Source: Candidatus Latescibacterota bacterium (GTDB taxonomy: Bacteria > Latescibacterota > UBA2968 > UBA8231). Taken from it: 64,000 nt of DNA. Position numbers and translations under genes: made by a program. The notes under the pieces are model-generated. The model was not told where the DNA came from, ran no database searches, and saw nothing but the letters and a program-made list of their open reading frames with translations. Below, one piece after another: positions 3,100 to 23,405 of the stretch (its first letter is position 1; each line of letters opens with the position of its first letter). The stretch spans positions 224,001 through 288,000 of the forward strand of contig CBDCDC010000002.1 in the NCBI GenBank assembly GCA_965215195.1, read 5' to 3'.

Positions 3100-3251
3100 C
3101 TTAGTACCCGACCCCTAAAGTAGGCGACCCTTACTTTGAGTACGCCTTTTCTGCGGTTTCCGCTGGGTGCGGGATCGCGGGCGTCCCGCCCTCGCCGAGG
3201 GCAAGATGCCCTCGATCCTTGGCCGGCTGAGGGCTGGTGTCGTGTAGTAAG
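3100..3251 (-). mobile_element. MITE family A, 152 bp
   Basis: Imperfect 16-bp TIRs (cttagtacccgacccc ... ggtgtcgtgtagtaag), flanking 8-bp direct repeat gtactggg; reverse complement of the copies at 8735 and 11241. Confidence 0.88.
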
Positions 3252-3267
3252 GTACTGGGAGAAAGCC

Positions 3268-4914
3268 CTATTTGAGCAAGGTCATCTTGCGGTGCAGCAC
3301 TTGGTCGCCAGCGCGGAGGCGGTAGAAGTACGTACCGGCGCTGAGGTCCGACGCATCGACGACGACCGAGTAGGTGCCGGCCATGCGCCATCCTTCTGAA
3401 AGCATCGCCACCTGTTGGCCGAGAGCATTGAAGAGGATCAGCTCGACGTGGCCAGCGGCCGGAATGGCGTAGGCAATGGTCGTGCTGGGGTTGAAGGGGT
3501 TGGGGTAGTTTTGATTCAGGGTGTAAGCATTGGGTACGGCCGCCGACACCGCGGACTCCTCGGCGACGAAGGTCGCTATCTCATTGGGCGAGATGCTGGC
3601 CGCTGCGAGAAAGGTCCAGCCCGAGGTCCACAATTCGCTGCCAAAGGCTCCGACATAGTCAACCTCGGTGTAGAAGCTGTCGTCGGGAATAGTGCCACCG
3701 CCGCCCCAAGCTGGGCTGCCTGTTTGCGGGCGCGGGTCCAGCCCCAAATTTTGGCTGCGGGAAATGCCGCTGAGCAGCGGGTCGACGATTTGGTTGCCAT
3801 TGGCGGCGAGGTGGTCGGCCGCGAACGGATCCGGGGCAATGGCGGCTAGATCGTCGCCGGCACCAAAGCCCCACCAGATGTTGTGAGCCAAGACGAGGTC
3901 GCCAGCTTCCAAGCGGGCGCGGCTGTCCTCACCGGACTCTAAATCCTCGATGTCAACGCCTTCGCCGGCAAAGTCGGTAAAGATGCTGTTGTGGTATTGG
4001 CCGCCAGCATTGTCGCGAATTTTGAGCACCACGTCGTTGTCGCCGTTGGTGGAAAAGGCCCCGGAGCCGATGTACGTGGCGTTGTAGATGACCGGAATGG
4101 CGTAGGGCGTACCGTCCTCGGGCGTGGTGCCGCCGTCGTGCTCACCCGCACGGTTGCCGGACTCGTCGCCTTGGATTGCGAACCAGAACTGGCCTTTGCC
4201 GCGGAAGCCTTCGTCGTAGTCAAAGGCGTCGTCGCCGTTGAAAGCCGAAACGAGGTACTTGGTGTTGACCGTGCCGCCAAACCACTCAAAGCCGTCGTCT
4301 TGGTTGTTGTACACCTCGACGTATTCGATGACCGTGCCGCTGCCCACGCCGCCCATGGTCAGGCCGTTGATCTCATTGCCCGCGCCAATGTCGGTGCCGC
4401 CGTGGCGGATGGACGCGTAGCGGAAGACGCCGGAGTTGTCGCCATCGTCGTCGCCGCCGTAGATGCCGCGCGGCTCGGTGGTGGGAATGCCCTCAATGGG
4501 GGTTTCGCCCGGCTGGGAGTTGAGGCTGGCGCGGCCGAGGATGATGACGCCGCCCCACAGGCCGCGGGCGTTGAGGGGCAGGTCGTTGGGGTTGCTGACG
4601 TCGTCGGCTTCAGCCGTGAAAATGATCGGCTTATCCGCAGTGCCAGCGGCAAAAATTTTGCCGCCGCGAGCCACGACGAGGGCGCTGGCGTTTTCGCCTT
4701 GTCCCGGCTTGCCCTTGACGACCGTGCCCGGCTGAATCGTCAGGGAGGAGCCCTCACCGACAAAAACTAGGCCGTTGAGTACGTACTCGTTGTCCGCGGT
4801 CCATTCCACATTGGCACCGGCCGGAATATCCGCGTCGGTGACGTCGATGGTGGCCGTCCAAGCGGCGGCCGGCAGCAGCGCGATGGCTGCCGCGAACATG
4901 GTCTTGCGAAGCAT
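3268..4914 (-). CDS. Secreted acidic beta-helix-like protein with T9SS type A-like/FlgD-like C-terminal domain
   Basis: Signal peptide; GLWGGVIILG, DDGDNSGVFRY, NEINGLT, DDGFEWFGG and DDAFDYDEG motifs; C-terminal LNQNYPNPFNPST...GTYFYRL...KMTLLK. Confidence 0.85.
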   Translation of the reverse strand: MLRKTMFAAAIALLPAAAWTATIDVTDADIPAGANVEWTADNEYVLNGLVFVGEGSSLTIQPGTVVKGKPGQGENASALVVARGGKIFAAGTADKPIIFTAEADDVSNPNDLPLNARGLWGGVIILGRASLNSQPGETPIEGIPTTEPRGIYGGDDDGDNSGVFRYASIRHGGTDIGAGNEINGLTMGGVGSGTVIEYVEVYNNQDDGFEWFGGTVNTKYLVSAFNGDDAFDYDEGFRGKGQFWFAIQGDESGNRAGEHDGGTTPEDGTPYAIPVIYNATYIGSGAFSTNGDNDVVLKIRDNAGGQYHNSIFTDFAGEGVDIEDLESGEDSRARLEAGDLVLAHNIWWGFGAGDDLAAIAPDPFAADHLAANGNQIVDPLLSGISRSQNLGLDPRPQTGSPAWGGGGTIPDDSFYTEVDYVGAFGSELWTSGWTFLAAASISPNEIATFVAEESAVSAAVPNAYTLNQNYPNPFNPSTTIAYAIPAAGHVELILFNALGQQVAMLSEGWRMAGTYSVVVDASDLSAGTYFYRLRAGDQVLHRKMTLLK

Positions 4915-5077: not shown

Positions 5078-6730
5078 ATGCCGTTATGGAAGCGGATAAA
5101 CGCCCTGCTGGTCGTCGTTTTAGGCGTAGTGGCCTGTTCCGATCCGCCGGTCGCGCCGGCACCGGCGGGTAAAGCCTTGGGGCAGGCCGAGGCCGATAGT
5201 ACGCAGTCGGACGCTGCGACCGACAGCCCCGCACCAGCCATCGTCTCGTTTGCCGACGCCAACTTGGAGCTTGCGGTGCGACGGACGCTGAACAAGCCCG
5301 AAGGCCCGCTGACCGCCGACGATCTGGCGTCCCTGACGAAGCTCGACGTAGAATGGCAAGACGTCTCAGGCATTGAGAGCTTGGCCGGCCTCGAACACGC
5401 GACAGCGCTGGACACGCTGAACCTGTGGGGCAACCAGATTGTGGATTTGAGTCCGTTGGCAGGGTTGACCCAGCTAACTTACCTCGACTTAGGGCACAAT
5501 CAGGTGGCGGATGTGGGTGCGTTGGCGGGCTTGACCAACTTGAAATGGCTGAGTCTGTGGGGCAACGCGGTGGCGAATTTAAGTCCGTTGGCAGGCTTGA
5601 CGAAGCTGACCTATCTGAACCTGTGGGGCAACCAGATTGAAGCGGTGAGTGCGTTGGCGGAGTTGACCAAGCTGACCTCGCTGAACTTGGGGCACAATCA
5701 GGTGGCGGATGTGCGGCCGTTGGATGATCTGACCCGGCTGGACTGGCTGGGCTTGGTGGACAATCCCATTCGCCAAGGGGACCTCGCCGAACAGATTCCC
5801 ACCTTGATAGAGCAGGACGTCACGGTCTCCGTCGTCCTGCCGAACCCACAACCACCCCCGGCCCCGGCAGCAGACCCGGCCCCGGCTCCACCCCCGGCCC
5901 CGGTAGTCGTCTCGTTCGCCGATGCCAACTTAGAGGATGCGGTGCGGGGGCAACTGGGTAAACCGGAAGGCGCACTTACATCCGCGGATCTGGCGTCCCT
6001 AACGACGCTTGGAGCAGCCAGGCTAAGCATTGAGAGCTTGGCCGGCCTCGAACACGCGACGGCACTAGTTGAGCTGGACCTGTCCGAAAACGCGGCTCTT
6101 GCGGATTTGAGTCCGTTGGCAGGCCTGACCAACTTGCAAAAGCTGTATCTGGCTTCCACGGCCATTGGGGATGCGGGTGTGGTTTCGTTGTCGGGCCTGA
6201 CCAACTTGGAATTGCTGCGTCTGAGTAGCACGGCCATTGGGGATGCGGGTGTGGTTTCGTTGTCGGGCCTGACCAACTTGCAAACGCTGTATCTGAGTAG
6301 CACGTCCATTGGGGATGCGGGGTTGGCTTCGTTGTCGAGCCTGACCAACTTGACATATCTGTATCTGAGTAGCACGTCCATTACGGATGCGGGGTTGGCT
6401 TCGTTGTCGAGCCTGACCAAGTTGCAAAGGCTGCGTCTGAGTAGCACGTCCATTACGGATGCGGGGTTGGCTTCGTTGTCAAGCCTGACCAACCTGACAT
6501 ATCTGCATCTGAATAACACGTCCATTGGGGATGCGGGGGTGGTTTCGTTGTCGAGCCTGACCAACCTGAAATGGCTGTATCTGAGTGACACGTCCATTAC
6601 GGATGTGAGTCCGTTGCTCAGCCTGACCAACTTGCAAAAGCTGTGGCTGCAAGGCACTACCCTCAGTGCCGCGTCAATCAACACACACATCCCCGCCCTT
6701 GAAACAGCAGGCGTTACGATCTACCGATAA
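5078..6730 (+). CDS. LRR lipoprotein, array copy 1 (internalin-like domain, Pro linker, variable LRR domain with 8 distal repeats)
   Basis: aaggagg RBS; lipobox-like VVAC; SFADANLE cap twice; 22-aa then 24-aa LRRs. Confidence 0.92.
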   Translation: MPLWKRINALLVVVLGVVACSDPPVAPAPAGKALGQAEADSTQSDAATDSPAPAIVSFADANLELAVRRTLNKPEGPLTADDLASLTKLDVEWQDVSGIESLAGLEHATALDTLNLWGNQIVDLSPLAGLTQLTYLDLGHNQVADVGALAGLTNLKWLSLWGNAVANLSPLAGLTKLTYLNLWGNQIEAVSALAELTKLTSLNLGHNQVADVRPLDDLTRLDWLGLVDNPIRQGDLAEQIPTLIEQDVTVSVVLPNPQPPPAPAADPAPAPPPAPVVVSFADANLEDAVRGQLGKPEGALTSADLASLTTLGAARLSIESLAGLEHATALVELDLSENAALADLSPLAGLTNLQKLYLASTAIGDAGVVSLSGLTNLELLRLSSTAIGDAGVVSLSGLTNLQTLYLSSTSIGDAGLASLSSLTNLTYLYLSSTSITDAGLASLSSLTKLQRLRLSSTSITDAGLASLSSLTNLTYLHLNNTSIGDAGVVSLSSLTNLKWLYLSDTSITDVSPLLSLTNLQKLWLQGTTLSAASINTHIPALETAGVTIYR

Positions 6731-6903
6731 TGAAAACCTTCATTCTTGTAGTAGGGGTGTTTCATGTCGCTGGACAATCCCGCTGAGAAGCCCATCGGGT
6801 GAGCGACGAACACAAATGGATGGTTCATATCGGTAAAAGGAATGGGCTCAATTTGACACCCCTGTTCTTGGTTCCTCAAACCTTTTATAGAAGGAGGCAA
6901 ACA

Positions 6904-8340
6904 ATGCTGTTATGGAAGCGAGCAAACGCCCTGCTAGTCGTCGTTTTAGGCGTGGTGGCCTGTTCCGATCCGCCGGTCGCGCCGGAGCCGGCGGGCAAAG
7001 CCCTCGGGCAGGCCGAGGCCGATAGCACGCCGTCGGACGCTGCAACCGACAGCCCCACGCCAGCCGTCGTCTCGTTTGCCGATGCCAACTTAGAGCGTGC
7101 GGTGCGGCGGACGCTGAACAAGCCCGAAGGCCCGCTGACCGCCGACGATCTGGCGTCCCTGACGAAGCTCGACGTAGAATGGCAAGACGTCTCAGGCATT
7201 GAGAGCTTGGCCGGCCTCGAACACGCGACAGCGCTGGACACGCTGAACCTGTGGGGCAACCAGATTGCGGATTTGAGTCCGTTGGCAGGCTTGACCAGCC
7301 TGACCCACCTGAACTTAGGGCACAATCAGGTGGCGGATGTGGGTGCGTTGGCGGGGTTGACCAATTTGAAATGGCTGAGTCTGTGGGGCAACGAAGTGGC
7401 GGACGTGAGTGCGTTGTCGGGGTTGACAAAGCTGACTTACCTGAGTCTGTGGGGCAACCAGATTGAAGCGGTGAGTGCGTTGGCGGGCTTGACGAAGCTG
7501 ACCTCGCTGGATTTGGGGCACAATCAGGTGGCGGATGTGCGGCCGTTGGATAGCCTGACCCGGCTGGACTGGCTGGGCTTGGTGGACAATCTCATTCGCC
7601 AACCGGACCTCGCCGAACAGGTGCCCACCTTGATAGAGCAGGACGTCAAGATTTCCGTCGTCCTGCCGAACCCGCAACCACCCCCGGCCCCGGCTCCACC
7701 CCCGACTCCGGCTCCACCCCCGGCCCCGGTAGTCGTCTCGTTCGCCGACGCCAACTTAGAGGGTGCGGTGCGGCAGGCGCTGGGTAAACCGGAAGGCGAA
7801 CTTACATCCGCGGATCTGGCGTCCCTAACGCGGCTTGACGCAGACGATCTAAACATTGAGAGCTTGGCCGGCCTCGAACACGCGACGGCACTGAGCTATC
7901 TGGCTCTGATTGGCAACCCGATTTCGGATGTGAGTCCGTTGGCGAGCCTGACCAAGTTGGAAGAGCTGGATCTGAATGGCACGTCCATTGGGGATGTGGG
8001 GGTGGCTTCGCTGTCGAGCCTGACCAACCTGACATTTCTGGATCTGGGTGGCACGTCCATTGGGGATGCGGGGGTGGCTGAGTTGACGAGCCTGACCAAG
8101 TTGGAAGAGCTGAATCTGCATAGCACGTCCATTGGGGATGCGGGGGTGGCTTCGCTGTCGAGCCTGACCAAGTTGGAAGATCTGGGTCTGAGTAACACGT
8201 CCATTACGGATGTGAGTCCGTTGCTCAGTCTGACCAACTTGCAATGGCTGTGGCTGAGGCGCGTTACCACCCTCAGTGCCGCGTCAATCAACACACACAT
8301 CCCCGCCCTTGAAGCAGCAGGCGTTACGGTCCAGCGATAA
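6904..8340 (+). CDS. LRR lipoprotein, array copy 2 (5 distal repeats)
   Basis: Paralog of copy 1; ATG at 6904 after aaggagg. Confidence 0.92.
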   Translation: MLLWKRANALLVVVLGVVACSDPPVAPEPAGKALGQAEADSTPSDAATDSPTPAVVSFADANLERAVRRTLNKPEGPLTADDLASLTKLDVEWQDVSGIESLAGLEHATALDTLNLWGNQIADLSPLAGLTSLTHLNLGHNQVADVGALAGLTNLKWLSLWGNEVADVSALSGLTKLTYLSLWGNQIEAVSALAGLTKLTSLDLGHNQVADVRPLDSLTRLDWLGLVDNLIRQPDLAEQVPTLIEQDVKISVVLPNPQPPPAPAPPPTPAPPPAPVVVSFADANLEGAVRQALGKPEGELTSADLASLTRLDADDLNIESLAGLEHATALSYLALIGNPISDVSPLASLTKLEELDLNGTSIGDVGVASLSSLTNLTFLDLGGTSIGDAGVAELTSLTKLEELNLHSTSIGDAGVASLSSLTKLEDLGLSNTSITDVSPLLSLTNLQWLWLRRVTTLSAASINTHIPALEAAGVTVQR

Positions 8341-8439
8341 TGAAAACCCTCATTCTTGTAGTAGGGGTGTTTCATGTCTGTGGACGATTCCGCTGAGAAG
8401 CCCATCGGGTGATCGACGAACACAAACGGATGGTTCATA

Positions 8440-8540
8440 TAGCAATCCTACCTCATTCACAAGGTGATCCGCAGGTGGACGCAGATAGGATGCCTAAGAC
8501 GATCCACCGCTCGAATCATTCAAATCATTCTGGATTGCTA
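8440..8540. mobile_element. MITE family C, 101 bp, IS630-like
   Basis: TIRs tagcaatcc / ggattgcta flanked by a TA duplication; empty site ggttcaTAtc present in sister spacers at ~6825 and ~17432. Confidence 0.85.
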
Positions 8541-8544
8541 TATC

Positions 8545-9340
8545 TGCAAAAAGAATGGGCTCAATAGACACCCCTCTTGCGGCGGCTGGGCGGGTCGGTG
8601 GGTCGGGGTCCTGTTGGCTTGGTCCGACGCGCCCCCCGCCGGTCCGTCCCCGCCGCCCGTGTAATCCACTACCGAGTAAGGGGTCGTGGGTCCCTTTTAA
8701 TTTTTTGGGACGTTTTGCCTTTTTATTTGGGGACCTTACTACACGACACCAGCCCTCAGCCTGCCAAGGATCGCGGGCATCTTGCCTTCGTCGAGGGCGG
8801 GACGCCCTCGATCCCGGACACCTCGGAAACAGCAGAAAATGCGTACTCAAAGTAAGTGTCGCCTACTTTAGGTGTCGTGTACTAAGGTCGGGGACTGAAA
8901 TTTTCAACCATCCCTTGATTTATATTCACGCTTACTTATGATTATTAAAGGCCGTGAGAGTTCGTATTTGTCTTTTACGCTCATCGTAAAGCGCGTGGTG
9001 TCCCGAATATCCTACTGATTCTCAACTTGTTAAAAAACATTAACGTACCCTCCTCCGCCCGCAAAATTTCTCTCGAGCGCGTAGCGCTCAATTCTCTACT
9101 GCTCAAGCACCGGCGATGGCTCCCACGCAGCCGTTTGGCGATCCGTCCCAACCCTCGCCGCCTGCTGCCCGTGCGGCCTTCGTCTGGCCGCCGTGACCGT
9201 CGTCTGCTATGGCGGCCGGTTCCTGCACCGGAACACCCGTATCCTAGTATGATCGAGATGTGATACAGGTGACCGTCGTCTGCCATGGCGGCCGGTTCCT
9301 GTTCCTGATTCCTCAAACCGTTTATAGAAGGAGACAAACA
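8545..9340 (+). repeat. Long intergenic module of the LRR array, copy a
   Basis: Homologous to 11051-11870 and 17643-18171; GC-rich hairpins plus an AT-rich core. Confidence 0.85.
8735..8886 (+). mobile_element. MITE family A, 152 bp
   Basis: TIRs cttactacacgacacc / ggtgtcgtgtactaag (15/16 match); degenerate 9-bp flanks tttggggac / gtcggggac; empty site at ~17822-17830. Confidence 0.88.
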
Positions 9341-10750
9341 ATGCTGTTATGGAAGCGAATAAACGCCCTGCTGGTCGTCGTTTTAGGCGTGGTGGCCTGT
9401 TCGGACCCGCCGGTGGCACCGACACCGGCGGGCAAAGCCCTCGGGCAGGCCGAGGCCGATAGTACGCAGTCGGACGCTGCAACCGACAGCCCCGCGCCAG
9501 CCGTCGTCTCGTTTGCCGATGCCAACTTGGAGCTTGCGGTGCGGCGGACGTTGAACAAACTCGAAGGCCGGCTGACCGCCGACGATCTGGCGTCCCTGAC
9601 GCGGCTCGACGTAGAGCGGCAAGACGTCTCAGGCGTTGAGAGCTTGGCCGGCCTCGAACACTGTACGGCACTGGACACGCTGAGTCTGTGGGGCAACCAG
9701 ATTGCGGATTTGAGTCCGTTGGCAGGCTTGACCCAGCTAAGCTATCTGAACCTCGGGAATAATCAGGTGGCGGATGTGGGTGCGTTGGCGGGGTTGACCA
9801 ACTTGCAGTGGCTGAGTCTGTGGGGCAACGAAGTGGCGGATCTGAGTCCGTTGGCAGGCTTAACCCAGCTAACTTACCTGAACCTGTGGGGCAATGCGAT
9901 TGAAGCGGTGAGTGCGTTGGCGGAGTTAACGAAGCTGACCTCGCTGGAGTTGGGGCACAACGCGGTGGTGGATGTGGGTCCGTTGGATGGTCTGACCCGG
10001 CTGGACTGGCTGGGCTTGTTGGACAATCCCATTCGCCAAGGGGACCTCGCCGAACAGGTGCCCACCTTGATAGAGCAGGGCGTCAAGATCTCCGTCGTTC
10101 TACCGAACCCACAATCACCGGCTCCACCCCCGGCCCCGGTAGTCGTCTCGTTCGCCGACGCCAATCTGGAGGATGCGGTGCGGCAGGCGCTGGGGCAACC
10201 GGAAGGCGAACTTACCTCCGCGGATCTGGCGTCCCTAACGCGGCTTGAAGCAAGCAATCTAAGCATTCAGAGCTTGGCCGGCCTCGAACACGCGACGGCA
10301 CTGATCTATCTGGAGCTGTCTGTCAACCGGATTTCGGATGTGAGTCCGTTGCTCAGCCTGACCAACTTGGAAACGCTGGATCTGGGTAGCACGGCCATTA
10401 CGGATGCGGGGGTGGCTTCGTTGACGCGCCTGACCAACTTGAAATCGCTGGATCTGGTTGACACGGACATTGGGGATGCGGGTGTGGCTTCGCTGTCGCG
10501 CCTGACCAACTTGGAAACGCTGATTCTGGCTTTCACGGACATTGGGGATGCGGGTGTGGCTTCGTTGACGCGCCTGACCAACTTGGAAACGCTGAGTCTG
10601 ACTTCCACGGACATTACGGATGTGAGTCCGTTGCTCAGCCTGACCAAGTTGACAGATCTGTATCTGAGGGACGTTACTACCCTCAGTGCCGCGTCAATCA
10701 ACACACACATCCCCGCCCTCAAAGCAGCAGGCGTTACGGTCACCCAATAA
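9341..10750 (+). CDS. LRR lipoprotein, array copy 3 (5 distal repeats)
   Basis: Paralog; ATG at 9341 after aaggag. Confidence 0.92.
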   Translation: MLLWKRINALLVVVLGVVACSDPPVAPTPAGKALGQAEADSTQSDAATDSPAPAVVSFADANLELAVRRTLNKLEGRLTADDLASLTRLDVERQDVSGVESLAGLEHCTALDTLSLWGNQIADLSPLAGLTQLSYLNLGNNQVADVGALAGLTNLQWLSLWGNEVADLSPLAGLTQLTYLNLWGNAIEAVSALAELTKLTSLELGHNAVVDVGPLDGLTRLDWLGLLDNPIRQGDLAEQVPTLIEQGVKISVVLPNPQSPAPPPAPVVVSFADANLEDAVRQALGQPEGELTSADLASLTRLEASNLSIQSLAGLEHATALIYLELSVNRISDVSPLLSLTNLETLDLGSTAITDAGVASLTRLTNLKSLDLVDTDIGDAGVASLSRLTNLETLILAFTDIGDAGVASLTRLTNLETLSLTSTDITDVSPLLSLTKLTDLYLRDVTTLSAASINTHIPALKAAGVTVTQ

Positions 10751-10822
10751 TGTCTTGTAGTAGAGGTGTTTCATGTCGCTGGACGAAGAAGCCCATCGGG
10801 TGATATACGAACACAATCTGTA

Positions 10823-11050
10823 ACTGATGTTCCGCATCCCCTGCCTTGGCAGGGGCAGGCTCTTATGCCGCGTCTGCTGCTTGCGGCCGCCGGTCGGGTG
10901 TCATTGCCGCGCTTGGCCGGACAAGCGGGCTTCGGCGTTGAGGGCCGTTGAAACGTGAAGTAGGCAGGACGGTAGGGCATAACGATCGTTATGCCCTACT
11001 TTGCTAGATGCGCAAGGAGCACCAACGCCTGAATGGCGCGTAACATCAGT
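10823..11050 (+). mobile_element. MITE family B, 228 bp
   Basis: TIRs actgatgttccgc / gcgtaacatcagt; 5-bp flanks ctgta / ctgca; absent at the homologous site near 8543. Confidence 0.8.
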
Positions 11051-11870
11051 CTGCAAAAAGAATGGTCTCAATATCCGTTCTCTTGCGGCGGCTGGGCGGG
11101 TCGGTGGGTCGGGGTCCTGTTGGCTTGGTCCGACGCGCCCCCCGCCGGTCCGTCCCCGCCGCCCGTGTAATCCACTACCGAGTAAGGGGTCGTGGGTCCC
11201 TTTTAATTTTTTGGGACGTTTTGCCTTTTTATTTGGGGACCTTACTACACGACACCAGCCCTCAGCCTGCCAAGGATCGAGGGCATCTTGCCCTCGTCGA
11301 GGGCGGGACGCCCTCGAGCCCGGACCCATCGGAAACCGCAGAAAAGGCGTACTCAAAGTAAGGGTCGCCTACTTTAGGGGTCGTGTACTAAGTGCGGGAA
11401 TTGAAATTTTCAACCATCCCTTGATTTATATTTACGCTTCCTTATAATTATTAAAGGCTGTGAGAGTTCGTATTTGTCTTTTAGGCTTATGGTAAAGCGC
11501 GTGGTATCTCGAATATCCTACCGATTCTCGACTTGTTAAAAGTGTCCCGAATATCCTATCGATTCTCGACTTGTTAAAAAACAGCCTCCCTCAAAATTTC
11601 TCTCGAGCGCGTAGCGCTCAATTCTCTACTGCTCAAGCACTGGCGACGGCTCCCAAGCGGCCGTTCGGCGAGTTGTCCCGCCCCTCGCCGCCTGCTGCCT
11701 GTGCGACCTTCGTCTGTACGCCGTGACCGTCGTCTGCCGTGGCGGCCGGTTCCTGCACCGGAACACCCGTATCTTGGTATGATCGACATGTGATACAGGT
11801 GACCGTCGTCTGCCGTGGCGGCCGGTTCCTGTTCCTGATTCCTCAGACCTTTTATAGAAGGAGACAAACA
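11051..11870 (+). repeat. Long intergenic module of the LRR array, copy b
   Basis: Near-identical to 8545-9340, including the MITE A insertion; extra ~38-bp tandem duplication at ~11504-11579. Confidence 0.85.
11241..11392 (+). mobile_element. MITE family A, 152 bp (co-duplicated with the spacer)
   Basis: Same TIRs and same insertion site as the 8735 copy. Confidence 0.87.
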
Positions 11871-13817
11871 ATGCCGTTATGGAAGCGAATAAACGCCCTG
11901 CTGGTCGTCCTCGTTTTAGGCGTGGTGGCCTGTTCGGACCCGCCGGTCGCGCCGGCACCGGCGGGCAAAGCCCTCGGGCAGGCCGAGGCCGATAGCACAC
12001 AGTCGGACGCTGCAACCGATAGCCCCGCGCTAGCCGTCGGCTCGTTTGCCGACGCCAACTTAGAGCTTGCGGTGCGGCGGACGTTGAACAAACTCGAAGG
12101 CCCGCTGACCGCCGACGATCTGGCGTCCCTGACGAAGCTTGACGTAGAATGGCAAGACGTTCAGGGCATTGAGAGCTTGGCCGGCCTCGAACACGCGACA
12201 GCACTGGACACGCTGAACCTGTGGGGCAACGCGGTGGCGGATTTGAGTCCGTTGGCAGGGTTGACCCAGTTGACCCACCTGAACTTGGGGGACAATCAGG
12301 TGGTGGATGTGGGTCCGTTGTCGGGGTTGACCAACTTGCAATGGCTGAGTCTGTGGGGCAACGAAGTGGCGGACGTGAATGCGTTGTCGGGGTTGACGAA
12401 GCTGACCTACCTGAACCTGTGGGGCAACGCGATTGAAGAGGTGAGTGCGTTGTCGGAGTTGACGAAGCTGACCTCGCTGAGCTTGGGGCACAACGCGGTG
12501 GTGGATGTAGGTCCGTTGGACGGCCTGACCCGGCTGGACTGGCTGGGCTTGGAGGGCAATCCCATCGGCCAACGGAACCGCGCCGAAATACCGAACCCAC
12601 AACCCCCGGCTCCGGGTTCACCCTCGGCTCCGGGTTCACCTCCGACGCCGGATACCCCCTCGACGCCGGATACCCCTCCGACGCCGGATACCCCCTCGGC
12701 TCCGGATACCCCCTCGGCTCCGGATCCACCATTGACTCCGGGTTCACCCCCGACTCCGGATCCACCTCCGACTCCGGATCCACCTCCGACTCCGGATCCA
12801 CCTCCGACTCCGGATCCACCTCCGACTCCGGATCCACCATTGACTCCGGATCCACCTCCGACTCCGGATCCACCTCCGACTCCGGATCCACCTCCGACTC
12901 CGGATCCACCACCGGACCCGGTAGTCGTCTCGTTCGCCGATGCCAACCTGGAGAGTTTGGTGCGGGGGCAACTGGGTAAACCGACAGGTGCGCTTACATC
13001 CGAGGATCTGGCGTCCCTAACGACGCTTGACGCAGACCGTGAATCCATTCAGAGCTTGGCCGGCCTCGAACACGCTACGGCACTGACTTGGCTGGACCTG
13101 ACTGAGAACTCGGCTCTTGCGGATGTGAGTCCGTTGTCGAGCCTGCCCAAATTGGGAAAGCTGTATCTAAGTGGCACGGCCGTTGGGGATGCGGGTGTGG
13201 CTTCGTTGTCGAGCCTGCCCAAACTGAAAGATCTGAGGCTGGCTTCCACGTCCATTACGGATGCGGGTATGAGCTCGTTGTCGAGCCTGACCAAATTGGA
13301 AACGCTGATTCTGAATAAAACGTCCATTACGGATGCGGGTGTGGCTTCGCTGTCGAGCCTGACCAGATTGAAAGATCTGAGGCTGGGTTCCACGTCCGTT
13401 ACGGATGCGGGTATGAGCTCGTTGTCGAGCCTGACCAAATTGGACGTGCTGTGGCTGGCTTCCACGTCCATTGGGGATGCGGGGTTGGCGTCGTTGACGA
13501 GCCTGACCAAAGTGAGATCGCTGTATCTGAGTAGCACGTCCGTTACGGATGCGGGGGTGGCTTCGTTGTTGAGCCTGACCAAATTGGAAGTGCTGAATCT
13601 GAGTGACACGTCCATTACGGATGCGGGTGTGGCTTCGTTGTCGAGCCTGACCAACTTGAAAGCGCTGTATCTGAAAAACACGTCCATTACGGATGTGAGT
13701 CCGTTGCTCAGCCTGACCAACTTGAAAGCGCTGTGGGTGACTGGCACTACCCTCAGTGCCGAGTCAATCAACGAACACATCCCCGCCCTTGAAGCAGCAG
13801 GCGTTACGGTTCACTGA
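11871..13817 (+). CDS. LRR lipoprotein, array copy 4 (long PTPDPP linker, 9 distal repeats)
   Basis: Paralog; ATG at 11871; first LRR domain lacks part of its C-cap. Confidence 0.92.
   Translation: MPLWKRINALLVVLVLGVVACSDPPVAPAPAGKALGQAEADSTQSDAATDSPALAVGSFADANLELAVRRTLNKLEGPLTADDLASLTKLDVEWQDVQGIESLAGLEHATALDTLNLWGNAVADLSPLAGLTQLTHLNLGDNQVVDVGPLSGLTNLQWLSLWGNEVADVNALSGLTKLTYLNLWGNAIEEVSALSELTKLTSLSLGHNAVVDVGPLDGLTRLDWLGLEGNPIGQRNRAEIPNPQPPAPGSPSAPGSPPTPDTPSTPDTPPTPDTPSAPDTPSAPDPPLTPGSPPTPDPPPTPDPPPTPDPPPTPDPPPTPDPPLTPDPPPTPDPPPTPDPPPTPDPPPDPVVVSFADANLESLVRGQLGKPTGALTSEDLASLTTLDADRESIQSLAGLEHATALTWLDLTENSALADVSPLSSLPKLGKLYLSGTAVGDAGVASLSSLPKLKDLRLASTSITDAGMSSLSSLTKLETLILNKTSITDAGVASLSSLTRLKDLRLGSTSVTDAGMSSLSSLTKLDVLWLASTSIGDAGLASLTSLTKVRSLYLSSTSVTDAGVASLLSLTKLEVLNLSDTSITDAGVASLSSLTNLKALYLKNTSITDVSPLLSLTNLKALWVTGTTLSAESINEHIPALEAAGVTVH
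12603..12920 (+). repeat. 18-bp coding tandem repeat (ccgactccggatccacct; PTPDPP), about 17 units
   Basis: Directly visible tandem repeat. Confidence 0.92.
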
Positions 13818-13962
13818 TAATGAAAACCCTTATTCTTGTAGTAGGGTGTTTCATGTCTGTGGACGATCTCGCTGAGAAGCCCATCGGGTGATATACGAAC
13901 ACAAATGGAACACCTAGCACCATTGGTTATTTAACCCTTTATTTAGTAGAAGGAGACAAACA

Positions 13963-15609
13963 ATGCTGTTATGGAAGCGAATAAACGCTCTGCTGGTCGT
14001 CCTCGTTTTAGGCGTGGTGGCCTGTTCGGACCCGCCGGTCGCGCCGGCACCGGCGGGCAAAGCCCTCGGGCAGGCCGAGGCCGATAGCACGCAGTCGGAC
14101 GCTGCAACCGGTAGCCCCGCGCTAGAAGTCGGCTCGTTTGCCGACGCCAACTTAGAGCTTGCGGTGCGGCGGACGCTGAACAAACTCGAAGGCCCGCTGA
14201 CCGCCGACGATCTGGCGTCCCTGACGAAGCTCGACGTAGAACGGCAAGACGTCTCAGGCATTGAGAGCTTGGCCGGCCTTGAACACGCGACGGCACTGGA
14301 CACGCTGAACCTGTGGGGCAACCAGATTGTGGATTTGAGTCCGTTGGCCGGGTTGACCAGTCTGACCTATCTGAACTTAGGGGACAATCAGGTGGTGGAT
14401 GTGGGTCCGTTGGCGGGCTTGACCAACTTGCAATGGCTGAGTCTGTGGGGCAACGAAGTGGCGGACGTGAGTGCGTTGGCAGGCTTAACCCAGCTAACTT
14501 ACCTGAACCTGTGGGGCAACCAGATTGAAGCGGTGAGTGCGTTGGCGGAGTTGACGGAGCTGACCTCGCTGAGCTTGGGGCACAATCAGGTGGCGGACGT
14601 GAGTCCGTTGGATAGCCTGACCCAACTCGACTGGTTGGGCTTGGTGGACAATCCCATTCGCGAACAGGACCTCGCCGAACAGGTGCCCACCTTGATAGAA
14701 CAGGCCGTCAAGGTCTCCGTCGTCCGACAGGCCCCGGTTTCACCCCCGGCCTCGGTAGCAGCCCCGGCTTCATCCCCGGACCCGGTAGTCGTCTCGTTCG
14801 CCGACGCCAATCTGGAGGGTGCGGTGCGGCAGGAGCTGGATAAACCGACAGGCGAACTTACATCCGCGGATCTGGCGTCCCTAACGCGGCTTAAAGCAAA
14901 CGGTCTAAGCATTCAGAGCTTGGCCGGCCTCGAACACGCGACGGCACTGAGCCATCTGGAGCTGCTTGCCAACCAGATTACGGATGTGAGTCCGTTGCTC
15001 AGCCTGACCAACTTGCAAACGCTGGAGCTGGGTGAAGCGGCCATTGGGAATGCGGGTGTGGCTTCGTTGTCGAGCCTGACCAGCCTGAAAAGGCTTAGTC
15101 TGAATAGCAGGTCCATTACGGATGCGGGTGTGGCTTCGTTGACGAGCCTGACCAACTTGAAAACGCTGAATCTGAGTTTAACGTCCATTGGGAATGCGGG
15201 GTTGGCTTCGTTGTCGGGCCTGACCAAGTTGGAAACGCTGGATCTGGGTAGCACGTACTTTACGGACGCGGGGTTGGCTTCGTTGACGAGCCTGACCAAC
15301 CTGAAAACGCTGTGGCTGAGTAGCACGGGCACTACGGATGCGGGTGTGGCTTCGTTGACGAGCCTGACCAAGTTGGAATTGCTGGGTCTGGGTAGAACGT
15401 CCATTACGGATGCGGGTGTGGCTTCGTTGACGAGCCTGACCAACCTGAAAACGCTGTATCTGAATAGCACGTCCATTACGGATGTGAGTCCGTTGCTCAG
15501 CCTGACCAAGTTGAAAACGCTGTGGCTGACTGGCACTAGCCTCAGTGCCGCGTCAATCAACACACACATCCCCGCCCTCAAAGCAAAAGGCGTTGCGGTC
15601 CAGCAATAG
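13963..15609 (+). CDS. LRR lipoprotein, array copy 5 (8 distal repeats)
   Basis: Paralog with RBS, lipobox-like motif and two LRR domains. Confidence 0.92.
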   Translation: MLLWKRINALLVVLVLGVVACSDPPVAPAPAGKALGQAEADSTQSDAATGSPALEVGSFADANLELAVRRTLNKLEGPLTADDLASLTKLDVERQDVSGIESLAGLEHATALDTLNLWGNQIVDLSPLAGLTSLTYLNLGDNQVVDVGPLAGLTNLQWLSLWGNEVADVSALAGLTQLTYLNLWGNQIEAVSALAELTELTSLSLGHNQVADVSPLDSLTQLDWLGLVDNPIREQDLAEQVPTLIEQAVKVSVVRQAPVSPPASVAAPASSPDPVVVSFADANLEGAVRQELDKPTGELTSADLASLTRLKANGLSIQSLAGLEHATALSHLELLANQITDVSPLLSLTNLQTLELGEAAIGNAGVASLSSLTSLKRLSLNSRSITDAGVASLTSLTNLKTLNLSLTSIGNAGLASLSGLTKLETLDLGSTYFTDAGLASLTSLTNLKTLWLSSTGTTDAGVASLTSLTKLELLGLGRTSITDAGVASLTSLTNLKTLYLNSTSITDVSPLLSLTKLKTLWLTGTSLSAASINTHIPALKAKGVAVQQ

Positions 15610-15626
15610 TTCTTGTAGTAGGGCTG

Positions 15627-15759
15627 CTTAGTACGCGACACCTAAAGTGGGTGCCACTTACTTTTGAGTACGCATTTTCTACTGTTTCCGATGGGTTCGG
15701 GATCGAGGGCGTCCCGCCCGCGATCCTTGGCAGGCTGAGGGCTGGTGTCGTGTAGTAAG
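15627..15759 (-). mobile_element. MITE family A, internally deleted copy, 133 bp
   Basis: TIRs cttagtacgcgacacc / ggtgtcgtgtagtaag; perfect 9-bp TSD gtagggctg (15618-15626, 15760-15768); sister 3' regions are empty. Confidence 0.92.
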
Positions 15760-15931
15760 GTAGGGCTGTTTCACGTCTGTGGACGATCCCGCTGAGAAGC
15801 CCATCGGGTGATCTACGAACACAATAGGTAGTAGCGATACGATTCTGTAAAAAGAATGGGCTCAATCGTCTGCCAAGGCGGTCGGTTCCTGTTCCTGATT
15901 CCTCAAACCTTTTGATAGAAGGAGACAAACA

Positions 15932-17344
15932 ATGCTGTTATGGAAGCGAATAAACGCCCTGCTGGTCGTCGTTTTAGGCATGGTGGCTTGTTCCGATCCG
16001 CCGGTGGCACCGGCGGGTAAAGCCCTCGGGCAGGCCGAGGCCGATAGTACGCAGTCGGACGCTGCAACCGATAGCCCTGCGCTAGAAGTCGGCTCGTTTG
16101 CCGACGCCAACTTAGAGCTTGCAGTGCGGCGGACGCTGAACAAACTCGAAGGCCCGCTGACCGCCGACGATCTGGCGTCCCTGACGAAGCTCGACGTAGA
16201 ACAGCAAGACGTCTCAGGCGTTGAGAGCTTGGCCGGCCTCGAACACGCGACGGCGCTGGACACGCTGAGTCTGTGGGGCAACCAGATTGCGGATTTGAGT
16301 CCGTTGGCAGGGTTGACTCAGCTAACTTACCTGAATCTGGGGAATAATCAGGTGGTGGATGTGGGTCCGTTGGCGGGGTTGACCAACTTGCAATGGCTGA
16401 GTCTGTGGGGCAACGAAGTGGCGGATTTAAGTCCGTTGGCAGGCTCGACGAAGCTGACCTACCTGAACCTGTGGGGCAACGCGGTGGCGGACGTGAGTGC
16501 ATTGTCGGAGTTGACGAAGCTGACCTCGCTGGACTTGGGGCACAATCAGGTGGCGGATGTGGGTCCGTTGGATGGTCTGACCCGGCTGGACTGGCTGGGC
16601 TTGTTGGACAATCCCATTCGCCAACGGGACCTCGCCGAACAGGTTCCCACCTTGCTAGAACAGGCCGTCAAGGTCTCCGTCGTCCGACAGGCCCCGGCTT
16701 CACCATCGGCCCCGGCTCCACCATCGGCCCCGGTAGTCGTCTCGTTCGTCGACGCCAATCTGGAGGGTGCGGTGCGGGGGCAACTGGGTAAACCGACAGG
16801 CGCGCTTACATCCGCGGATCTGGCGTCCCTAACGCGGCTTGAAGCAGTCGGTCTAAACATTCAGAGCTTGGCCGGCCTCGAATACGCGACGGCACTGAGC
16901 TATCTGGAGCTGCCTGTCAACCCGATTTCGGATGTGAGTCCGTTGGTGAGCCTGACCAACTTGGAAACGCTGGATCTGGGTAGCACGAAGATTACGGATG
17001 CGGGTGTGGCTTCGTTGGTGAGCCTGACCAACTTGAAATCGCTGGATCTGGTTGACACGGACATTACGGATGCGGGTGTGGCTTCGCTGTCGCGCCTGAC
17101 CAACTTGAAATCGCTGATTCTGGCTTTCACGGACATTACGGATGCGGGTGTGGCTTCGCTGTCGCGCCTGACCAACTTGGAAACGCTGTCGCTGACTTCC
17201 ACGTCCATTACGGATGTGAGTCCGTTGCTCAGCCTGACCAAGTTGAAAACGCTGTGGCTGAGGGACGTTACTACCCTCAGTGCCGCGTCAATCAACACAC
17301 ACATCCCCGCCCTTGAAGCAGCAGGCGTTAGGGTCGGCCGATAA
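15932..17344 (+). CDS. LRR lipoprotein, array copy 6 (5 distal repeats)
   Basis: Paralog; distal domain nearly identical to copy 3. Confidence 0.92.
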   Translation: MLLWKRINALLVVVLGMVACSDPPVAPAGKALGQAEADSTQSDAATDSPALEVGSFADANLELAVRRTLNKLEGPLTADDLASLTKLDVEQQDVSGVESLAGLEHATALDTLSLWGNQIADLSPLAGLTQLTYLNLGNNQVVDVGPLAGLTNLQWLSLWGNEVADLSPLAGSTKLTYLNLWGNAVADVSALSELTKLTSLDLGHNQVADVGPLDGLTRLDWLGLLDNPIRQRDLAEQVPTLLEQAVKVSVVRQAPASPSAPAPPSAPVVVSFVDANLEGAVRGQLGKPTGALTSADLASLTRLEAVGLNIQSLAGLEYATALSYLELPVNPISDVSPLVSLTNLETLDLGSTKITDAGVASLVSLTNLKSLDLVDTDITDAGVASLSRLTNLKSLILAFTDITDAGVASLSRLTNLETLSLTSTSITDVSPLLSLTKLKTLWLRDVTTLSAASINTHIPALEAAGVRVGR

Positions 17345-17443
17345 TGTCTTGTAGTAGGGTGTTTCATGTCGCTGGACGAAGAAGCCCATCGGGTGATCGA
17401 CGAACACAAATGGAACACCTAGCCCCATTGGTTCATATCTGTA

Positions 17444-17642
17444 ACTGATGTTCCGCATCCCCTGCCTTGGCAGGGGCAGGCTTGCTTGCTGCCGCCGGTC
17501 GGGTGTCATTGCCGCGCTTGGCCGGACAAGCGGGCTTCGACGTTGAGCTCCGCTGAAACGTGAAGTAGGCAGGACAGTAGGGCATAACGATCGTTATAGA
17601 CGCGCAAGGAGCACCAACGCCTGAATGGCGCGTAACATCAGT
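17444..17642 (+). mobile_element. MITE family B, 199 bp
   Basis: Same TIRs and site as the 10823 copy; flanks ctgta / cggta. Confidence 0.8.
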
Positions 17643-18171
17643 CGGTAAAAAGAATGGGCTCAATAGACACCCCTCTTGCGGCGGCTGAGCGAGTCGGTGG
17701 GTCGGGGGTCTGTTGGCTTGGTCCGACGCGCCGCCCGCCGCCGGTGTGATTTTCAAAGGGACCTACTACCGAATAAGGGTAGTGGGTCCCTTTGAATTTT
17801 TTGGGACGTTCTGCCTCTTTATCCGGGGACTGCAATTTCAAATATCCCTTGATTTGTTCACTCAGCGACCATAGAATACAAGGCCGTGAGATGTTGTGTT
17901 TGTCTTGCGCGTGATGCACCGAATACACCACCGATTCTCGACCTGCTAAGAATGTTATGTAAATCGTTAAAAACAGTAATTTACCCCCCTCCCCTCAAAA
18001 TTCTGCTCGTGCGCTCAATTCCCTACTGCTCAAGCACTGGCGACGGCTCCCAAGCGACCATTTGGCAAGCCGTCCCGACCCTCGCCGCCTGTTGCCCGTG
18101 CGGCATTCGTCTGTCATGGCGGCCGGTTCCTGCACCTGATTCCTCAAACCTTTTATAGAAGGAGGCAAACA
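17643..18171 (+). repeat. Long intergenic module of the LRR array, copy c (diverged, no MITE A)
   Basis: Homologous to copies a and b; intact long hairpin at 17752-17796. Confidence 0.8.
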
Positions 18172-19908
18172 ATGCCTTTATGGAAGCGAATAAACGCCCT
18201 GCTGGTCATCGTTTTAGGCGTGGTGGCCTGTTCGGATCCGCCGGTCGCGCCGGCGCCGGCGGGCAAAGCCCTCGGGCAGGCCGAGGCCGATAGTACGCCA
18301 TCGGACGCTGCAACCGGCAGCACCACGCCAGCCATCGTTTCGTTTGCCGATGCCAACTTGGAGCTTGCGGTGCGGCGGACGCTGAACAAACTCGAAGGCC
18401 CGCTGACCACCGACGATTTGGCGTCCCTGACGCGGCTTGACGTAGAACGGCAAGATGTTTCAGGCATTGAGAGCTTGGCCGGCCTTGAACATGCTACGGC
18501 GCTGGACACGCTGAATCTGTGGGGCAACCAGATTGTGGATTTGAGTCCGTTGGCAGGCCTGACCAGCCTGACCCACCTGAACTTAGGGAATAATCAGATT
18601 GTGGATGTGGGTCCGTTGGCGGGCTTGACCAACTTGCAATGGCTGAGTCTGTGGGGCAACCAGATTGTGGATTTGAGTCCGTTGGCAGGCCTGACGAAGC
18701 TGACCTACCTGAACTTAGGGCACAATCAGATTGTGGATGTGGGTCCATTGGCGGGGTTGACGAAGCTGATCTCGCTGGACTTGGGGCACAATCAGGTGGC
18801 GGATGTGCGGCCGTTGGCGGGGTTGACCCAGCTCGACTGGCTGGGCTTGGTGGGCAATCTCATTCGCCAACGGGACCTCGCCGAACAGGTGCCTACCTTG
18901 ATAGAAAAGGGCGTCAATATCTCCGTCGTCCTGTCGGCCTCGGCTTCACTACCGGCTCCGGCTCTACCCCCGGCTCCGGCTCCGCCACTGGATCCGCCTT
19001 CGGCTCCCGATCCGCCCTCGACTCCGGATCCGCCTTCGGCTCCCGATCCGCCTTCGACTCCGGATCCACCTTCGACTCCGGATCCACCTTCGACTCCGGA
19101 TCCACCCCCGCCACCGGATCCACCCCCGGACCCGGTAGTCGTCTCGTTCGCCGACGCCAACTTAGAGGGTGCGGTGCGGCAGGCACTGGGTAAACCGACA
19201 GGCGCGCTCACACCCGCGGATATGGCGTCCCTAACGTCGCTTACCGCAAGCAGTCTAAACATTGAGAGCTTGTCTGGCCTCGAACACGCTACGGCGCTGA
19301 CTGTGCTGGACCTGTCCGAAAACGCGGCTCTTGCGGATGTGAGTCCGTTGTCGAGCCTGAGCAAGTTGGAAACGCTGGATCTGAGTGGCACGTCGATTAC
19401 GGATGCGGGGTTGAGTTCGTTGACGAGCCTGACTAACCTGCAAACGTTGGATCTGGGTAGCACGTCGATTACGGATACGGGTGTGGGTTCGTTGTCGAGT
19501 CTGACTAACCTGCAAACGTTGGATCTGAGTGGCACGTCGATTGGGGATACGGGGGTGGGTTCGTTGTCGAGCCTGAGCAACCTGCAAACGTTGGATCTGA
19601 GTAGCACGTCGATTGGGGATACGGGGGTGGGTTCGTTGACGAGCCTGACTAACCTGCAAACGCTGGATCTGAGTAGCACGTCGATTACGGATACGGGTGT
19701 GGGTTCGTTGTCGAGCCTGAGCAACTTGCAAACGCTGGATCTGAGTAGCACGTCCATTGCGGATGTGAATCCGTTGCGCAGCCTAACCAAGTTGGAAACA
19801 CTGGATCTGACTGGCGTCACTACCCTCAGTAGCGCGTCAATCAACACACACATCCCCGCCCTCGAAGCAGCAGGCGTTGCGGTCACCCTAGATGAACACG
19901 CTCAGTAA
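18172..19908 (+). CDS. LRR lipoprotein, array copy 7 (7 homogeneous distal repeats)
   Basis: Paralog; distal repeats almost all LQTLDLSST. Confidence 0.92.
   Translation: MPLWKRINALLVIVLGVVACSDPPVAPAPAGKALGQAEADSTPSDAATGSTTPAIVSFADANLELAVRRTLNKLEGPLTTDDLASLTRLDVERQDVSGIESLAGLEHATALDTLNLWGNQIVDLSPLAGLTSLTHLNLGNNQIVDVGPLAGLTNLQWLSLWGNQIVDLSPLAGLTKLTYLNLGHNQIVDVGPLAGLTKLISLDLGHNQVADVRPLAGLTQLDWLGLVGNLIRQRDLAEQVPTLIEKGVNISVVLSASASLPAPALPPAPAPPLDPPSAPDPPSTPDPPSAPDPPSTPDPPSTPDPPSTPDPPPPPDPPPDPVVVSFADANLEGAVRQALGKPTGALTPADMASLTSLTASSLNIESLSGLEHATALTVLDLSENAALADVSPLSSLSKLETLDLSGTSITDAGLSSLTSLTNLQTLDLGSTSITDTGVGSLSSLTNLQTLDLSGTSIGDTGVGSLSSLSNLQTLDLSSTSIGDTGVGSLTSLTNLQTLDLSSTSITDTGVGSLSSLSNLQTLDLSSTSIADVNPLRSLTKLETLDLTGVTTLSSASINTHIPALEAAGVAVTLDEHAQ
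18952..19134 (+). repeat. 18-bp coding tandem repeat (PSTPDP/PSAPDP), about 10 units
   Basis: ccttcgactccggatcca-like units visible. Confidence 0.85.
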
Positions 19909-23037: not shown

Positions 23038-23057
23038 GGATGGACAACCTCCCTTGG

Positions 23058-23180
23058 AAAGTACACGACCGTAGGGCCTTACCCTCGGATCGAGGGCATC
23101 TTGCCCTCGTCGAGGGCGGGACGCCCTCGATCCCGGACTCATCGCCCATCAACGACAAGTTATTGGTGTCGTGTAGTTAG
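23058..23180 (+). mobile_element. Degenerate MITE A-related element
   Basis: Internal doublet ggatcgagggcatcttgccctcgtcgagggcgggacgccctcgatccc; right end ggtgtcgtgtagttag; decayed left end aagtacacgacc; no TSD seen. Confidence 0.7.
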
Positions 23181-23285
23181 GGTAAAAGCAAAAATGATAG
23201 AGAGGCTGTGTTGAGAAGAGGTTACTGCAAAATTACAATCCGGTGCCAAGGGGTCTTGAAGGGGGTAGGTCCAGCATGGAAAACC

Positions 23286-23325: not shown

Positions 23326-23405
23326 TGCGAGCGCATTTATTTATTTGGGGAGCAAAAAGACACAAAAGCCGCAGAATTTCGCACCGTGCGAGGGAGAATT
23401 GTAAC

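Follow-up and report, generated by a model that had tools for sequence, protein, structure and literature searches.

Seven tandem genes for predicted two-module leucine-rich repeat lipoproteins with diversified distal repeats in a Candidatus Latescibacterota genome

Listeria genomes are reported to carry 9–28 internalin genes each (PMC3019230), and the Leishmania PSA genes on chromosome 12 are described as tandem, membrane-anchored leucine-rich repeat (LRR) paralogs in which intra- and intergenic recombination changes the number of LRRs and positive selection is confined to non-consensus, outward-facing LRR positions, other subfamilies being conserved (PMC2584048). Here, we describe an array of seven plus-strand LRR paralogs, g1–g7, at positions 5078–19908 of a 64-kb stretch of a Candidatus Latescibacterota genome (contig CBDCDC010000002.1, positions 224,001 to 288,000; hereafter the window). 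The predicted lipoproteins encoded by this array combine a proximal LRR module under purifying selection with a distal LRR module that is strongly diversified at five residues of each repeat. Internalins and Leishmania PSA are the closest functional parallels of the array, with PSA nearer in evolutionary pattern.

The internalins (InlA, InlB, InlH/C2) resemble the array in forming a bacterial family of many LRR paralogs, some of them in tandem clusters, and in having 22-residue LRRs with a helical N cap. When compared to PDB sequences, the proximal module matches InlA chains over query residues 110–230 (E 4e-109 to 4e-65), and InlA also heads the top Foldseek matches, which further include a Chlorobium Roco LRR domain and Leptospira LRR proteins. 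In contrast to internalins, the array proteins end in an LRR C cap, have a putative N-terminal lipobox and a second LRR module of another class, and belong to a diderm of the Fibrobacteres-Chlorobi-Bacteroidetes (FCB) group rather than to a firmicute. They also score far below the NCBIfam cut-offs (182–208 bits versus 1600 for internalin_A and 146–172 versus 1050 for internalin_H), and neither an Ig-like inter-repeat domain nor an LPXTG, GW or WxL anchor, all of them internalin features, was detected in the seven proteins by Pfam. Leishmania PSA differs in coming from a eukaryotic parasite, in its LRR signature, Cys-rich flanking domains and glycosylphosphatidylinositol or transmembrane anchor, and in lacking a second, constant module.

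In lamprey variable lymphocyte receptors (VLRs), 24-residue LRR modules vary in number and carry variable residues at strand-motif positions 2, 3, 5, 7 and 8, and the same motif positions vary in the distal repeats of the array. VLRs are assembled somatically from an incomplete germline gene and flanking cassettes, whereas the array genes are complete, with no cassettes in the window; their variable residues are inherited unchanged, and they lack Cys-knot LRRNT and LRRCT caps. The likeness to VLRs therefore holds only for the geometry of variation, a variable concave face, and not for the mechanism. Leptospira LRR proteins (for example LIC10831, LIC12759 and LIC11098) are described as lipoproteins that form a multigene family in one genome, and they match structurally, with Foldseek E values of about 1e-16 at 18–19% sequence identity; however, they have a single LRR module and not the two-module plan of a constant and a variable part. 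Binding of cadherins by a Leptospira LRR protein is cited in PMC13345303.

A further parallel is given by the 24-residue GALA/ribonuclease inhibitor (RI)-like LRR modules of FCB and Planctomycetes-Verrucomicrobia-Chlamydiae (PVC) bacteria: the distal repeat of the array (..T.ITDAG...L..) matches Pfam LRR_6 and a solved GALA protein (9j7j, the best match of this module among PDB sequences, E 4e-21). Judging by source names and Pfam lists, Planctomycetota and Verrucomicrobiota often have such repeats in proteins with a fused BlaR1-type peptidase, Ser/Thr kinase or sigma factor, which are mostly single large sensors or effectors, not tandem lipoprotein paralogs with an internalin-type module. Targets of diversity-generating retroelements differ from the array too, in that no reverse transcriptase (RT) domain is present in the scanned flanking open reading frames (ORFs) and no adenine bias is seen.

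Constant proximal and diversified distal modules

All seven ORFs of the array are complete, with intact reading frames, when gene starts are placed at the ATG aligned with the start of g1. The original prediction had described seven tandem paralogs with a common lipoprotein signal, common caps and two LRR domains, and this description was reproduced in every ORF: a lipobox-type signal is followed by a tether, a capped module of 22-residue LRRs, a Pro-rich linker and a capped module of 24-residue LRRs, and Pfam LRR_4, LRR_8, LRR_6 and LRR_1 match all seven proteins. The array also stands well beyond chance, with Tandem Repeats Finder (TRF) scores of 340–700 for the 72-nt arrays and 33 in-register copies.

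Lipobox-type signals consist of a basic n-region and a hydrophobic core, followed by [LVI][ASTVI][GAS]C. By eye, this pattern is matched in all seven proteins (M(P/L)LWKR...VLG(V/M)VAC-SD; ..KR..LLVV(L)VLG(V/M)VAC-SD), with the Cys at residue 20–21, and g1–g7 are predicted to be exported and lipid-anchored at this residue. C-terminal sorting domains of the type IX secretion system (T9SS; Por_Secre_tail, CHU_C or FlgD_ig type) were found in none of the seven proteins by Pfam, though neighbouring genes carry them. The tether after the Cys comprises ~35 residues and is rich in Ala, Asp, Ser and Thr. It carries a D-S-T motif (..EADSTQSD..; stretch 5078–5250 in g1 and its counterpart in g2–g7), which we take to resemble D(S/T)(A/I/L/V/M/T), the O-glycosylation sequon of Bacteroidota. 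L001 (9998–10400) and L002 (10001–10290), two homologs described below, contain three such motifs each.

The first module starts with an SFADANLE cap, continues with five to six 22-residue LRRs (66-nt period by TRF; Pfam LRR_4, E 1e-46 to 1e-61) and is closed by ..NPIRQ.DLAEQ(V/I)PTLIEQ.V.VSVV, from which g4 diverges after DLAE, at the start of its Pro-rich linker. This linker is short in five genes, whereas in g4 and g7 it is built from an 18-nt unit, repeated ~17 times in g4 and ~7–10 times in g7. The second module has an SF(A/V)DANLE cap, 24-residue LRRs (72-nt period) and a closing cap close to TTLSAASINTHIPALEAAGV. Because each half consists of a cap, LRRs and a closing stretch, the protein gives the impression of containing the same capped LRR module twice. 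An AlphaFold model of g1, built from a 17-sequence alignment, has a mean predicted local distance difference test (pLDDT) score of 84.6 and contains two confident solenoids (pLDDT >90 in both), with residues 1–49 and 254–273 disordered and with a strand every 22 residues in the proximal (N) module and every 24 residues in the distal (C) module.

Repeat counts of 8, 5, 5, 9, 8, 5 and 7, as originally given for the distal modules of g1 to g7, are obtained when the first repeat, the internal repeats and the last '..TSITDVSPL' repeat are counted together; internal '..TSIxDAGVASL..' repeats number 6, 3, 3, 7, 6, 3 and 5, that is, 33. The variable positions, denoted x, are positions 5, 6, 8, 10 and 11 of the 24-residue unit, corresponding to positions 2, 3, 5, 7 and 8 of the LxxLxLxxT motif. 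Across the 33 internal repeats, each x position has an entropy of 2.2–2.8 bits and 6–10 residue types, compared to at most 1.7 bits at every other position, and Leu at positions 1, 7, 9 and 22 as well as Gly18 are invariant. All strings quoted earlier for the x region (QKLYLAS, ELLRLSS, TYLHLNN, KSLDLVD, ETLILAF, KDLRLAS, KRLSLNS) are present in the array. That x residues differ in almost every repeat is true of the array as a whole, with 29 distinct five-residue signatures among the 33 repeats, but does not extend to g7, whose five internal repeats are almost alike at x (QTLDL[GS][SG]; variable-block identity 0.905), nor to g3 and g6, which have ETLDLGS, KSLDLVD and (E/K)(T/S)LILAF in common.

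In LRR proteins, the x positions of the strand motif line the concave face of the solenoid. The AlphaFold model places x6-L7-x8 as the strand in each 24-residue turn, in agreement with the predicted location of the x sites in solenoid strands, and textbook geometry would put them on the concave face.

To quantify the divergence of the repeats, selection statistics were calculated on the 33 internal 72-nt repeats (528 pairs). At the x sites, the proportion of nonsynonymous differences (pN) was 0.52 and that of synonymous differences (pS) 0.08, compared to 0.146 and 0.139 at the remaining 19 sites, with pairwise ratios of nonsynonymous to synonymous divergence (dN/dS, omega) of ~10 at x sites and ~1 elsewhere. 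A Goldman–Yang codon model on a fixed tree gave an omega of 50, the upper bound, for x sites and 1.18 for the scaffold, and when omega was fixed at 1, the likelihood-ratio statistic (2dlnL) came to 53.9 at x sites and to about 0 at the scaffold. By both measures, dN/dS at the x sites lies above 1, as anticipated. Model-free per-site differences were 0.575 at codon positions 1–2 and 0.162 at position 3 of the x codons, 0.049 in the L7/L9 codons inside the variable block, and 0.176 at positions 1–2 and 0.113 at position 3 of the scaffold.

Between paralogs, the signal and tether have an omega of 0.27, the N cap one of 0.22 and the N-LRR segment one of 0.35, showing that the signal, the tether and the first module are under purifying selection; the proximal module's own x sites (0.33) have no excess over its scaffold (0.38). 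With omega at 1.06 in the second cap and 1.89 in the last repeat plus C cap, these parts are relaxed or under positive selection. The proposed division into a constant and a variable half is thus upheld, with omega at 0.22–0.38 from the signal to the N-LRR segment, 1.06–1.89 in the distal caps and ~10 at the distal x sites. Calling the proximal domain near-invariant, however, was too strong, as its N-LRR segments share 81.5–90.6% nucleotide identity between paralogs, though under purifying selection. In any LRR protein, constraint is weakest at the x positions, and the evidence says that their variation in the distal module exceeds this ordinary looseness, with a caveat for gene conversion that is weighed below.

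Duplication history and relatives in other assemblies

Besides the 72-nt period, TRF reports periods of 144 and 216 nt, and several repeats are near-twins (g4.2/g4.4, g2.1/g2.3, g1.4/g1.6), supporting the earlier suggestion that repeats are shuffled to the extent that repeat number has changed through duplication of 72-nt units in blocks of 1–3. Over four aligned segments, the paralogs share 81.5–95.5% nucleotide identity, and the genes are mosaic, with the nearest paralog shifting between segments along the gene. The unit of gene duplication takes in conserved 5' and 3' flanks plus, in three cases, a homologous spacer of 0.8–1.0 kb.

A genome scan identified the best relatives on two Latescibacteria chromosomes, L001 (55% identity) and L002 (45%), where the homolog is single-copy at each matched locus. 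The two-module plan recurs in the L001 protein, which has four '..AITDAGVASLSS..' repeats, and the distal module of the L002 protein has 22–23-residue repeats only. These loci show no more than loose synteny with the window: next to the L001 gene there is a DUF6785 homolog, whose counterpart in the window sits 39 kb from the array, and in the L002 neighbourhood none of the 25 tested window flank proteins was matched.

Among database proteins, g3 is identical to P0005, which is recorded on a 4,862,218-nt contig. P0001 and P0006, orthologs of g2 and g6 from another assembly, lie together on one independent 624-kb contig and have the same repeat numbers as their counterparts; P0001 is 94% identical to g2 in the N half and 98% in the distal half, and P0006 is 98% and 95% identical to g6. 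At the x sites, neither pair shows a single difference (0/30 in each), with 16/278 differences in the N half for g2/P0001 and 5/270 for g6/P0006. The notion that the distal modules are hypervariable between populations is contradicted by both pairs. Less close relatives also exist, P0002 for g2 and P0008 for g6. The distal modules of P0003, P0004, P0007 and P0035 have fewer repeats and are at most 80% identical to any of g1–g7, so different assemblies hold different members of the family, each member being stable.

Two further proteins show the modules being recombined. In P0013, from another assembly, a Peptidase_M8 domain of the leishmanolysin type is linked to the N module of the array (74% identity), and P0009 (836 residues), encoded on the window's own contig, is a paralog with ~270 extra residues between both LRR modules. 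A protein search with the distal module of g4 returned no ortholog above 69% identity; its matches were mostly large proteins named M56/M48 peptidase or kinase fusions, with Planctomycetota and Verrucomicrobiota as named sources. In the literature searched, LRR proteins of Latescibacteria are mentioned in a single paper, which does no more than count them as eukaryotic-like proteins in sponge-associated metagenome-assembled genomes.

Probable lineage-specific expansion and its alternatives

We consider it fairly probable that the array arose by lineage-specific tandem expansion of one two-module LRR lipoprotein gene, the distal module being diversified after duplication and then conserved. Lineage specificity is suggested by the single-copy state of the homolog at the matched loci of the two Latescibacteria genomes. 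The predicted disordered tether of ~35 residues would hold a capped internalin-type solenoid of 22-residue repeats, beyond which a Pro-rich spacer of variable length would hold a second capped solenoid of 24-residue, GALA/RI-like repeats. Tandem duplication has copied the gene with its 5' and 3' flanks, in three cases with the spacer, and the distal repeat number has been altered by duplicating 72-nt units, one to three at once. Five exposed residues per strand turn have been replaced much faster than silent sites and, once a paralog had formed, its x residues have stayed fixed in the closest orthologs.

On this scheme, the seven genes could provide binding specificities that are fixed, inherited and different from gene to gene, all built on one chassis, lipid-anchored and displayed outward on stalks of different length, in which the proximal module would contact something common to all and the distal modules would bind different ligands. 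Diversity would come from duplicated genes, from unequal recombination in the repeats, from positive selection and, to some degree, from conversion between paralogs, with no programmed or somatic rearrangement behind it. A bolder version, which we offer as tentative and rather doubtful, is that the array forms an inherited recognition repertoire, a bacterial counterpart of multigene innate receptor families: the constant module would dock all seven proteins to one partner or envelope site, the rapidly diversified distal modules on their Pro-rich stalks of different lengths would each have another target outside the cell (host, prey, phage or polymer), and strains would carry different distal sets.

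Several observations weigh against expansion followed by selection on the distal module. The repeats are not orthologous sites, and gene conversion breaks the single-tree model and can inflate omega; identical 51-nt scaffolds beside divergent x codons (0/51 versus 9/15 differences in g1.1/g1.2, and 0/51 versus 5/15 in g6.2/g6.3) fit homogenisation as well as selection. One member, g7, represents repeat expansion without diversification. In the more distant relatives, 3/30 x sites differ compared to 23/278 positions of the N half for g2/P0002, and 4/30 compared to 28/267 for g6/P0008; these x sites change only about as fast as the rest, which gives no sign of ongoing selection. Furthermore, at the level of 90% clusters, g1, g4, g5 and g7 appear in neither protein-database listing, though they would be expected near the top, and support from an independent assembly therefore covers the g2 and g6 types only.

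Part of this evidence can be accommodated by concerted evolution, in which the variable 21-nt blocks are old and neutral or under purifying selection, and short-tract conversion resets the 51-nt scaffold, inflating dN/dS at the x sites. The identical scaffolds beside divergent blocks are as expected from such a process, and so are the higher scaffold identity within genes (0.880) than between genes (0.840), the lower dS in the distal flanks (0.05–0.19) than in the N half (0.18–0.37) and the shift of the nearest paralog along the gene. If the blocks were old, however, silent positions inside them should have diverged too, and their divergence is as low as that of the scaffold, in both the L7/L9 codons (0.049) and the x third positions (0.162 versus 0.575 at positions 1–2), an argument that draws on two Leu codons and five third positions only. 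Codon bias alone is insufficient to explain the silent conservation, as L4 and L22 alternate between TTG and CTG (pS 0.46 and 0.39), and we regard concerted evolution without selection for change as unlikely. There is likewise a low probability that the proteins are periplasm-facing or structural lipoproteins, acting as scaffolds or tethers, whose distal variation is tolerated surface drift and not a set of distinct specificities. The single acidic residue after the lipobox Cys, the uniform repeats of g7, by which a working member need not be diversified, and the general looseness of LRR x positions are all compatible with this view; yet drift yields an omega of up to 1, not far above it, the complete x-site identity of the two closest ortholog pairs argues for function, and long Pro-rich spacers of variable length suit outward display.

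A VLR-like or otherwise programmed system seems very improbable. In such a system, distal modules would be assembled or rewritten within the life of the lineage, whether through copied cassettes, through site-specific recombination or through hypermutation targeted to them, as by a diversity-generating retroelement; in its favour, modular 72-nt units with conserved junctions could guide copy-choice, and g6.3 (KSLILAF) has the look of a hybrid between g6.2 (KS...) and g3.3 (..LILAF). Searches of the 64-kb window with blastn and tblastn gave 0 matches each to LRR units outside the seven ORFs, and no RT, recombinase, invertase or deaminase domain was found in the 30 larger flanking ORFs and two small intergenic ORFs. 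The consensus at the 18 most variable nucleotides (G5, A5, C4, T4) is free of adenine bias, no variable block is duplicated identically between genes save ETLDLGS in g3/g5/g6 and KSLDLVD in g3/g6, and the x sites are identical in orthologs of another assembly. With all seven genes complete and no LRR fragment outside them in the window, a VLR-like mechanism, as the original prediction had it, is not supported. An assembly artefact, by which a smaller family was wrongly expanded or mis-joined in a repeat-rich region, can scarcely be credited. The repeats are long and similar, and the database listings lack four of the genes, but the copies are distinct over the four aligned segments, spacers (68–988 nt) and linkers differ in length, all seven frames are intact, the source contig is recorded as 4.86 Mb, and the g2 and g6 types occur with the same repeat numbers on the independent 624-kb contig.

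Read as a lineage-specific expansion, the array is a clean example of a bacterial LRR family, from outside the well-studied pathogens, that has diversified at its binding face, with the constant module serving as an internal control and repeats young enough that silent sites are unsaturated. Should each distal module have its own ligand, the locus would tell what an uncultured Latescibacteria-like organism needs to recognise and would represent a naturally occurring series of small LRR binders that use a single chassis. That LRR families diversify through duplication, through changes in repeat number and through positive selection on exposed residues is already established for internalins, Leishmania PSA, plant resistance genes and vertebrate receptors, and the array therefore extends a known pattern rather than opening a new one.

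Array features, spacers and neighbouring genes

Table 1 Genes and long spacers of the array (positions in the window)
Feature	Positions	Strand	Length	Content	Basis
g1	5078..6730	+	550 aa	6 internal 24-aa repeats at 6125-6556; short Pro linker	ORF, Pfam, AlphaFold model
g2	6904..8340	+	478 aa	3 internal 24-aa repeats at 7948-8163	ORF, Pfam; ortholog P0001
g3	9341..10750	+	469 aa	3 internal repeats at 10358-10573; distal pattern common with g6	ORF, Pfam
g4	11871..13817	+	648 aa	7 internal repeats at 13143-13646; long Pro-rich linker 12602-12914	ORF, TRF, Pfam
g5	13963..15609	+	548 aa	6 internal repeats at 15004-15435	ORF, Pfam
g6	15932..17344	+	470 aa	3 internal repeats at 16952-17167	ORF, Pfam; ortholog P0006
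g7	18172..19908	+	578 aa	5 internal repeats at 19357-19716, nearly uniform at x; Pro-rich linker 18941-19121	ORF, TRF, Pfam
g2/g3 intergenic	8341..9340	+		homologous to g3/g4 and g6/g7 spacers; terminator-like hairpin 8678-8696, MITE-like 8733-8886, promoter-like 8915-8942	
g3/g4 intergenic	10751..11870	+		90% identical to 8543-9340 over 822 nt; terminator-like 11184-11202, MITE-like 11239-11392, promoter-like 11421-11448	
g6/g7 intergenic	17345..18171	+		79% identical to 10751-11240; terminator-like 17752-17796, promoter-like 17849-17877	

The array is bordered by a T9SS-cargo gene (3268–4914, minus strand) on one side and a TonB-dependent receptor gene (20158–23142, minus strand) on the other. 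Within it, T-run terminator-like hairpins follow g2, g3 and g6, and TTGATT-16/17-TATAAT-like sites lie ~300–430 nt upstream of g3, g4 and g7, an arrangement that suggests four transcription units with long leaders, (g1,g2), (g3), (g4,g5,g6) and (g7); both kinds of site are consensus matches only, and terminator-like sites are fewer than in shuffled sequence.

The spacers also contain a 154-nt element with 19-nt terminal inverted repeats, which looks like a mobile or structured element of the miniature inverted-repeat transposable element (MITE) or repetitive extragenic palindromic (REP) type. Three full copies are located in array spacers (8733–8886 and 11239–11392, plus strand; 15627–15761, minus strand), and a further full copy (3100–3253, minus strand) and a partial copy (23087–23144) lie outside the array. 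An Rfam scan of positions 1–26000, including this element, gave no family at gathering score, and a tRNA scan of the 64-kb window found none. Intergenic ORFs at 8555–8941 and 11001–11447, which overlap the MITE-like insert and had no Pfam match, are probably not genes. No convincing inverted repeats of invertible promoters were found in the long spacers, where the candidates were limited to the ends of the MITE-like insert, a 14-nt palindrome and a terminator-like hairpin. Shortly before the start codons of g3 and g4, a 33-nt direct repeat occurs as two copies 76 nt apart that are 97–100% identical (9193–9225/9269–9301 and 11723–11755/11799–11831).

Further along the window, three large secreted proteins are encoded in a row at 52389–58724 (minus strand), and T9SS-cargo C-terminal domains (FlgD_ig, CHU_C, Por_Secre_tail) occur there as well as in the gene at 3268–4914. 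A DUF6785/DUF6784 gene (58790–60739) adjoins this cluster, and its homolog adjoins the single LRR gene of L001. On the other side of g7, the region 20158–32726 starts with the TonB-dependent receptor gene, which is convergent with g7, followed by a 339-residue ORF without a Pfam or NCBIfam family; further ORFs carry PBP-like (PstS-type), permease and ATP-binding cassette (ABC) ATPase domains, along with a response regulator/histidine kinase pair. By its domain matches alone, this region may be read as a phosphate-uptake neighbourhood, and its first permease ORF (25428–27632) has weak beta-propeller-like matches too.

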